From a virus: DNA of 31,938 nucleotides. Of this stretch, positions 3,270 to 5,434 are shown in pieces (position 1 is the first letter of the stretch; the number at the start of each line of letters is the position of its first letter). The notes under the pieces were generated by a model. That model ran no database searches and had not been told where the DNA came from. It saw only the letters and a program-made list of their open reading frames with translations. The stretch lies in the UHGV virus genome UHGV-0224535; one strand, 5' to 3'. The position numbers and the translations under genes were made by a program.

Positions 3270-3551
3270 ATGGCCCCATCAAACGGAGTAGAAATTATGG
3301 TTGTGATCAGACTATGGCGCGGAGTTAGTAGGCTTGATGGCACATACAGCCGTGTAATTGAGGTTGTTAACAATAGTATGTTTTATAAACTGGAATACAG
3401 CGAAAAAAGGGAGAATGAATATTTGAGCGAATCGACCCCTATGTGGTGCAAAGTGGCTGGCCTTTCTTCACTTATGCGTTGCGGGTTTTATACAGATTAT
3501 AACACGCTAACAGATGCCGAACTGGTGGCAACTCTTTACGGAGGAGAATAA
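3270..3551 (+). CDS. hypothetical protein (93 aa; alternative start 3297)
   Basis: Track ORF, co-directional packing. Confidence 0.5.
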   Translation: MAPSNGVEIMVVIRLWRGVSRLDGTYSRVIEVVNNSMFYKLEYSEKRENEYLSESTPMWCKVAGLSSLMRCGFYTDYNTLTDAELVATLYGGE

Positions 3552-3554
3552 ACA

Positions 3555-3878
3555 ATGACTAAATTTATCAGTGTTAAAGTTTTCCGTGGCACTATTCCAG
3601 AAAGTGAAAAATACGGCGAATTTAGTGGAATGCCTGGCGCATGTTTCCGTGTAGCTACAGAAGACGATAACCGTGTTAAATGTTTCCACATATCAGAACC
3701 GCCTTTCGATCCAGAACATCTTAAACATCCAGGTAAAATTAAAACGCTTATTTTCGCTTTTCTGACGATTAATCCTTACCCTGATCTTGAGGTTGATTTA
3801 GTCGGCGCGGAACTGGTCGCAGAATACAAAATAACCCCGGCAGAAAGCGGAGATTCTGAAATTGAGCGCATCAAATAA
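3555..3878 (+). CDS. hypothetical protein (107 aa)
   Basis: GGAGGAG RBS then ATG 3555. Confidence 0.6.
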   Translation: MTKFISVKVFRGTIPESEKYGEFSGMPGACFRVATEDDNRVKCFHISEPPFDPEHLKHPGKIKTLIFAFLTINPYPDLEVDLVGAELVAEYKITPAESGDSEIERIK

Positions 3879-4113
3879 ACCTTACAAAATCCGGTGTAAA
3901 GTGGAATATCCTGGCTTTACGACTGGATGCGAATACCTGGGCCATATGGGGTATGGCCCGTTCGGCGAGTTAGGAATGAATACGATTGACGACGACGGCG
4001 ACAACAGGACGCTTGATCTTGATAGCGATGATTTCGAATACATCCCGCCAGTCACTTACCGCGTCGTCGATGATTTCCTGGCTGAACATGAAGACGAGGA
4101 TGATGATGATTGA
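3862..4113 (+). CDS. hypothetical protein with poly-acidic C-terminus (EHEDEDDDD); TTG start at 3862 per track, true start uncertain
   Basis: Track ORF; GGAG upstream of the TTG. Confidence 0.45.
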   Translation: MSASNKPYKIRCKVEYPGFTTGCEYLGHMGYGPFGELGMNTIDDDGDNRTLDLDSDDFEYIPPVTYRVVDDFLAEHEDEDDDD

Positions 4114-4306
4114 ATGCCTTATCGCTGTGATTGTTTTGCTTTATATCGCTGGCGCGATCCTGATGTCATGTTTTATTAAGTTTAGCGGCGCTGAACCTGG
4201 TGGCCTTGAGATTCCTTTTTGGCCTGTGACTGTGTTTATCGCTTTCTTCGATGCAACGCTAGTGCAGATTAAGCGAGCCATTAAGGAGCGTAAAAATGGG
4301 AAATAG
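4106..4306 (+). CDS. small membrane protein (about 66 aa, two hydrophobic helices)
   Basis: GAGG 6 nt before ATG 4106 (three tandem ATGs at 4100-4108); MIECLIAVIVLLYIAGAILM...IPFWPVTVFIAFF... is hydrophobic; the track ORF 3986..4306 probably starts here. Confidence 0.5.
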   Translation: MIECLIAVIVLLYIAGAILMSCFIKFSGAEPGGLEIPFWPVTVFIAFFDATLVQIKRAIKERKNGK

Positions 4307-4520
4307 CGACCATCAATATGACGGCGTTTATCAGTCATTGGTGTCACGCGCTTATTATCGCCTTGAAGGTGAACACGTAATGATGCGATCACGCCAGTTT
4401 GAACTGTGGCATGAAACGGTTTTACCTGTGACAGCGAAAGAAGTTATCACGATGTTTAATCACGGACATTGGAGCAAGATTGGCGATATTAAGTTCAGGA
4501 TGTTTAAAGAGGGCGATTAA
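4296..4520 (+). CDS. small protein related to the 4521 and 4700 paralogs (74 aa)
   Basis: AGGAG RBS; ...YDGVYQS... N-terminal motif. Confidence 0.55.
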   Translation: MGNSDHQYDGVYQSLVSRAYYRLEGEHVMMRSRQFELWHETVLPVTAKEVITMFNHGHWSKIGDIKFRMFKEGD

Positions 4521-4703
4521 ATGATTGAAGATGGTATATACGCCGTGAACCTCATTGATGAAATGTTTTACCGCGTGGAGGGTAATGATATTCGTATCAG
4601 TATCGATGGTGGCGAGTGGAAAGAGCCATTCATGGATATGACGCGGGAAATAATTGAAATCATGCTTTATAACGGCGACGTGGTGAAGGTTAGCGACCTG
4701 TGA
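4521..4703 (+). CDS. small protein, paralog of the 4700 gene (60 aa)
   Basis: MIEDGIYAVNLIDEMFYRVEGNDIRISIDGGEWKE versus IEDGIYLHKVFNIVYLLKGNKVMIRPDDDPHWES in the next gene. Confidence 0.6.
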   Translation: MIEDGIYAVNLIDEMFYRVEGNDIRISIDGGEWKEPFMDMTREIIEIMLYNGDVVKVSDL

Positions 4704-4876
4704 ACGAGATCGAAGACGGCATCTATTTGCATAAGGTATTTAACATCGTCTATTTACTTAAAGGTAATAAGGTGATGATAAGACCTGATGACGATCCACA
4801 TTGGGAATCAAGCGGCATGGATCGCGAACACATGCAAACATTGCTTGATAATGGCCTGATATACAGAAAGCAGTAA
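4700..4876 (+). CDS. small protein, paralog of the 4521 gene; GTG start overlapping the upstream stop (GTGA)
   Basis: Similarity to the 4521 protein reaches the GTG codon, supporting a non-ATG start; below the track cutoff. Confidence 0.5.
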   Translation: MNEIEDGIYLHKVFNIVYLLKGNKVMIRPDDDPHWESSGMDREHMQTLLDNGLIYRKQ

Positions 4877-4898
4877 AGCCGTATTTGTTGGGGGTAAT

Positions 4899-5126
4899 AT
4901 GGAAGAAAGGGTTTTGCTGTCATCAATATGGCATCGGTTCGGAAGTGAAAAAGGTTACTCACCTGCTTGCTGGCTGGATAGTAAAAGCGGAAAGGAGTAT
5001 CAAAACGAGTGCGAATTTAGAAGGGAGTGGCGAGGCGGTAAGGAAGTGCAAGGATATTTTGCACCAAAACACGTTGCCGTCAAATACAAAGAATGGCTTG
5101 TTCGTTTGCTTGGACCTTATCGTTAA
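4899..5126 (+). CDS. hypothetical protein (75 aa)
   Basis: GGGGG RBS then ATG 4899; preferred over the overlapping 4885..5160 ORF, which is Cys/Gly-rich and lacks an RBS. Confidence 0.45.
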   Translation: MEERVLLSSIWHRFGSEKGYSPACWLDSKSGKEYQNECEFRREWRGGKEVQGYFAPKHVAVKYKEWLVRLLGPYR

Positions 5127-5191
5127 CGCCGTATTTGTAGAGCGCAAACAAACAGATTAAAATATTTCCTAACAATGCGAAATTGTAATTA

Positions 5192-5215
5192 CCCGGCCCC
5201 GCGCCGGGTTTTTGC
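5192..5215 (+). terminator. rho-independent terminator (CCCGGC-CCCGC-GCCGGG followed by TTTTT)
   Basis: Read directly; separates the early block from the lysis cassette. Confidence 0.6.
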
Positions 5216-5233
5216 TTTGTTGGAGGAAAATCT

Positions 5234-5434
5234 ATGTTCGACAGAATACGGGAGGCGTGTGCGTATGTGACTGGGGCCGTAACTGCTTTTTTCGGCGCGA
5301 TAACCATCAATGACATCGCTGTTTTCGTTGGTATCTTATCAACCGTAGGCACATTTGCCGTTAATTATTACTTCAAATCACAGGAGAACAAGCGGGCGCA
5401 AGAGGAACACGACGCGCGAATGGGGAACAAGTAA
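5234..5434 (+). CDS. holin, probably pinholin-type (66 aa, two hydrophobic segments)
   Basis: GGAGG RBS; two TM-like stretches (ACAYVTGAVTAFFGAITI, IAVFVGILSTVGTFAVNYYF), charged C-terminus; immediately upstream of a SAR-type lysozyme. Confidence 0.75.
   Translation: MFDRIREACAYVTGAVTAFFGAITINDIAVFVGILSTVGTFAVNYYFKSQENKRAQEEHDARMGNK

Follow-up and report, generated by a model that had tools for sequence, protein, structure and literature searches.

Gene Organization at the Locus

Three small genes are packed end to end on the plus strand between positions 4296 and 4876 of the window, as the whole stretch of 31,938 nucleotides analyzed here (virus genome UHGV-0224535) is called. They form a tandem array of three diverged paralogs, named C, A and B in the order in which they are read. 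The C-type gene (4296..4520) starts with ATG, encodes 74 amino acids and corresponds to the PGAP coding sequence WP_023278316.1. The A-type gene (4521..4703) encodes 60 amino acids (PGAP, WP_001703243.1), and the B-type gene (4700..4876) encodes 58 amino acids from a GTG start (PGAP, WP_001703242.1). The coordinates and peptides quoted for these three open reading frames (ORFs) in the initial annotation were rechecked in the sequence and are correct, and the GTG codon that it placed at 4700, overlapping the upstream TGA, is present as GTGA.

A Shine-Dalgarno (SD) sequence, AAGGAG, lies before C at 4283..4288 on the plus strand, with an anti-SD duplex of -9.6 kcal/mol. The ATG of A adjoins the TAA of C directly. 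The GTG of B (4700-4702) overlaps the TGA stop of A (4701-4703), such that the four bases GTGA (4700..4703) make up the A stop/B start overlap, a candidate translational-coupling junction. Before B lies a weak SD-like GAAGG (4685..4689), 10 nt 5' of the GTG, with a duplex of -3.9 kcal/mol. In the frame of B, the GTG is preceded by two sense codons and, before these, by an in-frame TAG at 4691-4693.

The window represents a temperate coliphage or E. coli prophage of the mEpimmI type (mEp021-like). Between 3500 and 5500 it is 84-90% identical to phages mEp554, mEp010, mEp044 and mEp013, and the segment 4296-5233 occurs with 100% identity in a prophage of E. coli LP-26-E1-261 and with 99.9% identity in those of strains 2017C-4173W12 and M1/5. 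The C-A-B array closes a long run of small genes on the same strand, which in relatives spans the interval from Q to the holin/lysozyme/Rz cassette, and in every relative the family sits directly upstream of a conserved promoter/terminator/holin segment. The genes mEp021_45, mEp554_66/67 and mEp010_72/73 are orthologs at the same site upstream of the lysis cassette, and mEp554 and mEp010 have the same 4-base A/B overlap as the window. Unlike the window, mEp021, mEp554 and mEp010 start B with ATG and have no C copy, and mEp021 also lacks A. A term search of the text and supplements of the mEpimmI paper (PMC11893012) found no mention of the A, B or C genes; the mass spectrometry of mEp021 in that paper covered virion proteins only.

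Several other features mark the small-gene run. The window does not start inside gene Q, as had been considered: bases 1-141 are the 3' end of IS903B, an IS5-family element, with 100% identity to the copies present in about 1900 E. coli records. Because phage homology begins at base 142, the element is an insertion that borders the small-gene region on its upstream side. Just after a 59-amino acid ORF (156-335), and within the supposedly antiterminated operon, there is a strong hairpin resembling an intrinsic terminator on the plus strand at 364-383 (AAGCGGGATAAAACCCGCTT, followed by eight T). An Rfam search of the whole window gave no match. The gene at 3862-4113 on the plus strand adjoins the array and encodes a very acidic protein of 83 amino acids (phrog_25234, pI 4.05) from a TTG start. 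That TTG is found in the window and in 25/25 related loci, with an SD of the GGAG(G) type 7-9 nt upstream, and its universal conservation makes it a more systematic case than the GTG at 4700, which is specific to one lineage. PHANOTATE called shorter, ATG-started versions of this gene in mEp554 and mEp010.

The Segment between B and the Holin Gene

Downstream of B, a gene of 75 amino acids on the plus strand (4899..5126; phrog_23715, E = 1.6e-55) separates B from the lysis promoter region as an insertion/deletion cassette. The cassette is flanked by the direct repeat TAA(A/C)GCCGTATTTGT (window 4874-5147), and its protein has a weak KilA-N-like match. Most relatives lack the gene, and there the stop of B adjoins the promoter-like segment directly.

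The segment from 5128 to 5233, which ends at the holin gene (plus strand, ATG at 5234), is near-invariant across 22 distinct locus sequences. By resemblance to consensus and by conservation, it holds a promoter-like element of the sigma-70 type on the plus strand at 5135-5163 (TTGTAG, 17 nt, TAAAAT), with a -35 hexamer that matches at 3/6 positions; the scan tool did not list this promoter. Beyond a short leader, a terminator scan detected a GC-rich intrinsic terminator with a T run on the same strand at 5191-5209, directly before the holin SD. A -10-like TAACAAT also occurs at 5170-5176. The last 90-110 bases or so of the segment (from about 5124/5146 to 5233) recur in further E. coli prophages at 88-97% identity and are unannotated there. 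The layout of 5128-5233 resembles lambda pR'/tR', and by this analogy 5135-5209 is probably a Q-dependent late promoter/terminator unit with which the small-gene operon ends. Given this lambda-like layout, C-A-B would belong to the preceding, delayed-early transcript, and the three genes would be cotranscribed in the delayed-early/Q operon, ahead of the putative late promoter.

Codon 1 of B, Gene Layouts and Recombination

The B start differs among relatives. The homologous start codon in mEp554, mEp010 and mEp021 is ATG (...agcgacctATGAAC...), versus GTG in the window (...agcgacctGTGAAC...), and the sequence 5' of the B start is near-identical in all four. Among full-length homologous IMG/VR loci, codon 1 of B is ATG in 29/32 and GTG in 3/32; counted over the 21 unique DNA sequences, it is ATG in 19 and GTG in two. 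The gene content of the array varies as well, with B alone in mEp021, A-B at 27 loci, C-A-B at six, and a C-like gene followed by B at one. All six of the C-A-B loci have GTG at the start of B, all A-B loci have ATG, and the C copy is present only in the sublineage that also carries GTG. Comparison of these loci points firmly to an ancestral ATG that mutated from A to G, the derived GTG having become fixed in the sublineage with the gain of C.

A different reading of the same change is that it weakens or removes the start, with B silenced or decaying and perhaps made redundant by C. In E. coli, initiation at GTG is generally less efficient than at ATG. The SD of B is weak, and GTG is a minority state that strictly co-occurs with the gain of C. 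However, the B ORF is intact in every GTG carrier found, namely at least three strains of separate origin (France, Germany and one unstated) and three IMG/VR contigs, and in locus L017 the GTG is joined to a C-terminus of B that is recombinant yet intact. In addition, GTG is a normal start codon in E. coli, and the overlap needed for coupling is preserved. Silencing or decay of B is judged unlikely on this balance, and the derived GTG is taken as a working start. The A-to-G change, rather than being neutral, could lower or abolish expression of B in the GTG lineage.

The paralogs also recombine with one another. There are B bodies with A-type N-termini, including 56-amino acid forms such as P0023, as well as A bodies with B-type N-termini (P0092) and a C/B chimera (P0111). 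In mEp021, A was lost by deletion at an 8-base microhomology (CTGGTGAA), and the final 20 bases of A persist as the ribosome-binding region of B. In public assemblies, deletions between adjacent small genes have often yielded in-frame chimeric ORFs, for instance with the N-terminus of a 3862-like protein or that of a first-cluster protein (described below) joined to the C-terminus of B; the loci and proteins concerned include L003 4647-4830, L038 2986-3081, P0076, P0090, P0122, P0126, P0129 and P0137. One of these, P0076, hinted at kinship of the A/B/C family with the ORF at 3270 (phrog_32200), which was rejected at an hhalign probability of 0.3%. The 3' end of C (4447-4518) contains an imperfect 24-base direct repeat, with 75% identity and copies 48 bases apart, that encodes ITMFNHGH and then FRMFKEGD. 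Because of this repeat, the 11-residue C-terminal extension of C, relative to 65-amino acid intermediates, is suggested to be a local duplication.

Paralogy and Family Membership

The initial annotation described the proteins from 4521 and 4700 as paralogs and that from 4296 as related to them, and the similarity is far above chance. With 2000 shuffles as the reference, Smith-Waterman z-scores are 8.8 for A/B, 9.7 for A/C and 6.2 for B/C, and none of the shuffles reached the observed score. The A and B subfamilies match by hhalign with 99% probability. When the small ORFs of the window are compared by BLASTP, C, A and B are linked solely to one another (E = 7e-6 for C/A, 8e-6 for A/B and 1e-3 for C/B).

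All three proteins match phrog_15318, a PHROG family (PHROGs v4) with no assigned function. A matches over positions 1-60 of 60 (E = 5.6e-33) and B over residues 3-58 on positions 1-58 (E = 3.8e-31), such that both align end to end and the PHROG is the same family as the ORFs of the window. C matches with residues 9-62 on positions 4-57 (E = 1.2e-4). An HMM built from A and B sequences, excluding any C-type sequence, still finds residues 9-63 of C (E = 1.5e-7); membership of C is thus upheld with no circular use of its own sequence. Two of the 65-amino acid intermediates, P0131 and P0133, bridge C and A, and the same PHROG is matched by 68/68 aligned relatives. By these sequence comparisons, C, A and B are genuine paralogs.

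The family is small. A census of a 5.8-billion-sequence collection gave 189 clusters, for which the names listed are all Escherichia except for two unclassified phage (Caudoviricetes) metagenome entries. An exhaustive HMMER search over 1.84 billion representatives gave 19 proteins. The short proteins among them are members or chimeras of the A/B/C family; four long ones are repetitive, beta-rich surface proteins and were judged to be spurious relatives. These searches mark the family as tiny and lineage-restricted, confined to one phage group.

Predicted Fold and Possible Function

The AlphaFold2 model of A has a pLDDT of 95.6, with strands at residues 5-9, 15-20 and 23-28, a helix at 42-50 and a final strand at 54-58. 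The C, A and B proteins are described as small (58-74 amino acids), soluble, single-domain proteins with a predicted beta3-alpha-beta fold. They are acidic to neutral, with pI values of 4.05 for A, 5.4 for B and 6.5 for C. The conserved positions (D4, G5, Y7, Y17, G21, R42, D50 and G52) are mostly structural. The C-terminal third of the protein (codons 40-55) has a dN/dS of 0.09. The loop from strand 3 to the helix (codons 27-39) is variable, with up to six residues per site and a dN/dS of 0.42, a value that indicates relaxed constraint rather than demonstrating positive selection.

Searches for characterized relatives gave little. The AlphaFold model of A matched no characterized structure, and its matches in BFVD were uncharacterized small phage proteins (TM about 0.7, E at least 0.01). 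Scans of the three proteins and their neighbors with Pfam, NCBIfam and PADLOC gave nothing usable, and the best E value of a sequence profile search of the PDB was 0.33. A Pfam scan of the 68 relatives gave weak matches to the GYF domain (PF02213) in eight members, the best with an E value of 0.0086 and below the gathering threshold, and none for the A protein of the window. These and the other sub-threshold Pfam matches in the set were rejected as noise.

The best guess at function, offered with low confidence, is that the proteins are dispensable, fast-evolving accessory factors that bind other proteins in host takeover or anti-defense. Binding specificity would reside in the variable loop that joins strand 3 to the helix, and A and B may work as a pair. 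A more specific version, in which the paralogs are lineage-specific, rapidly recombining binders, A and B form a coupled hetero-oligomer and the loop sets the target against a host or defense protein, is a speculative proposal with a rather small chance of being right in full. If the proteins are such binders, the changes in copy number (B, A-B and C-A-B) and the many paralog chimeras would reflect an arms race.

Relation to the First Cluster of Small Genes

The initial annotation presented C-A-B as the second cluster of a small-protein family whose first cluster lies at 1555-2726. This view does not survive comparison, given that no homology between the clusters is detectable and the predicted folds differ. 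The first cluster is phrog_31142-like and consists of the ORFs at 1555 and 2269 and a truncated one at 1776, together with the more distant ORFs at 2511 and 2001. The truncated gene (1776-1880) encodes 34 amino acids, versus 71 for the full-length protein in relatives (MNIMYVRCTESKSSCFEVGGIYTV...FVKW), and a deletion or frameshift seems to have occurred in the window between 1880 and 2000.

The first cluster does have a number of traits in common with C-A-B. It too consists of small tandem paralogs, in the same operon, found only in Escherichia prophages and with G-x-(I)Y near the N-terminus. These traits would fit a single superfamily built on a G-x-Y beta-hairpin, of which the two clusters had diverged past sequence recognition: both have [DEG]-G-x-(I/V)-Y near the N-terminus, both are small, tandem and limited to one and the same group of phages, and small proteins of T1-like phages include structural look-alikes of each. 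However, hhalign gives a probability of 0.2-0.7% (0.18% in one run) between the A/B/C family and the first cluster, iterative searches from either do not recruit the other, and the two fall into different PHROGs (15318 and 31142). The AlphaFold2 models are likewise dissimilar, with three strands, a helix and a strand for A/B/C (the model with a pLDDT of 95.6), versus six strands and no helix, all beta, for the first cluster (pLDDT 73.9), and the best 50 BFVD matches of each have no target in common. Common descent of the two clusters is thus very improbable, and the shared G-x-(I/V)-Y, as a short beta-strand motif, is no evidence of such descent. The small-gene region of the window therefore contains not one small-protein family but at least two that are unrelated.

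Initiation and Translation of B

The GTG start proposed for B in the initial annotation is upheld by comparison of homologous loci. The N-terminus upstream of the first ATG, which begins MNEIEDGIY, is conserved. Codons 2-25 have a pS of 0.36 and a pN of 0.10, with a dN/dS of 0.21, which is indistinguishable from the 0.23 of codons 26-55, and synonymous third-position changes occur at Ile4, Asp6, Gly7, His11, Ile16 and Leu19. Constraint thus reaches the GTG, the very codon at which orthologs begin, as expected of a functional non-ATG start. No homologs were found to begin at the internal methionine, and one, L037, lacks it, with TTT at codon 26. Whenever the gene directly preceding B is a family member, the two overlap as xTGA (ATGA or GTGA). 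Because of the ATG codons of the orthologs, the purifying selection upstream of the internal methionine, the preserved overlap and the TTT of L037, the start of B is placed at GTG 4700, a comparative assignment that can be regarded as firm.

Translation of B from the internal ATG at 4775 (Met26) into a 33-amino acid peptide, with the upstream likeness to A as a relic of duplication, would suit the facts that 4775 is the first ATG in frame and that AGGTG stands just ahead of it, but it is extremely improbable, given the equal purifying selection on codons 2-25, the predominance of ATG at codon 1, the TTT of L037, the zero spacing between the SD-like AGGTG and the ATG, and a product deprived of residues 1-25, which by alignment to the A-type model make up the first two strands and the beginning of the third in the confidently predicted fold.

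With the start at GTG 4700, the gene proves to be well represented in public annotation. It had been supposed that callers restricted to ATG would miss B. On the contrary, PGAP calls exactly 4700-4876 in two RefSeq genomes as WP_001703242.1, which is the same protein with the same coordinates, GTG start included. In the LP-26-E1-261 prophage, with its 100% identity to the window across 4296-5233, the RefSeq coordinates of all three genes equal those given here. An IMG entry (P0005) is the identical B protein with its first residue written as V, and PHANOTATE calls the ATG orthologs of B in the mEp phages. The B gene, its GTG start and the family are already in RefSeq, IMG and PHROGs as hypothetical proteins. 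Among E. coli phages, a GTG start that overlaps an upstream stop is commonplace. The value of the present analysis is therefore mostly annotation hygiene, with a clean comparative demonstration of a real GTG start and the separation of the two small-protein families as modest gains.

The signals around the GTG suggest how B is translated. The SD duplex of B, at -3.9 kcal/mol, compares with -6.3 to -9.7 kcal/mol for most neighboring genes. The GAAGG motif sits in the conserved 3' end of A (codons ...VKVSDL) and is itself conserved in relatives. Given the weak SD and the conserved stop/start overlap, termination-reinitiation coupling to A is the most likely route to B. Ribosomes terminating on the UGA of A would reinitiate at GUG 4700, within GUGA, to translate B. 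Taken as a whole, it is very likely that the locus comprises tandem paralogs of predicted beta3-alpha-beta fold before the lysis cassette, with B read from GUG 4700, likely by coupling, from a derived GTG; the accessory role enters this picture as the low-confidence guess given above.

In E. coli, trpE-trpD and trpB-trpA are translationally coupled, overlapping genes with stop-start overlaps of the ATGA/GTGA kind. The A and B genes resemble these pairs in their 4-base overlap, in the weak SD of the downstream gene and in their conserved adjacency. They differ in that the B start in the window is GUG, not AUG, and in that the coupling here is predicted.
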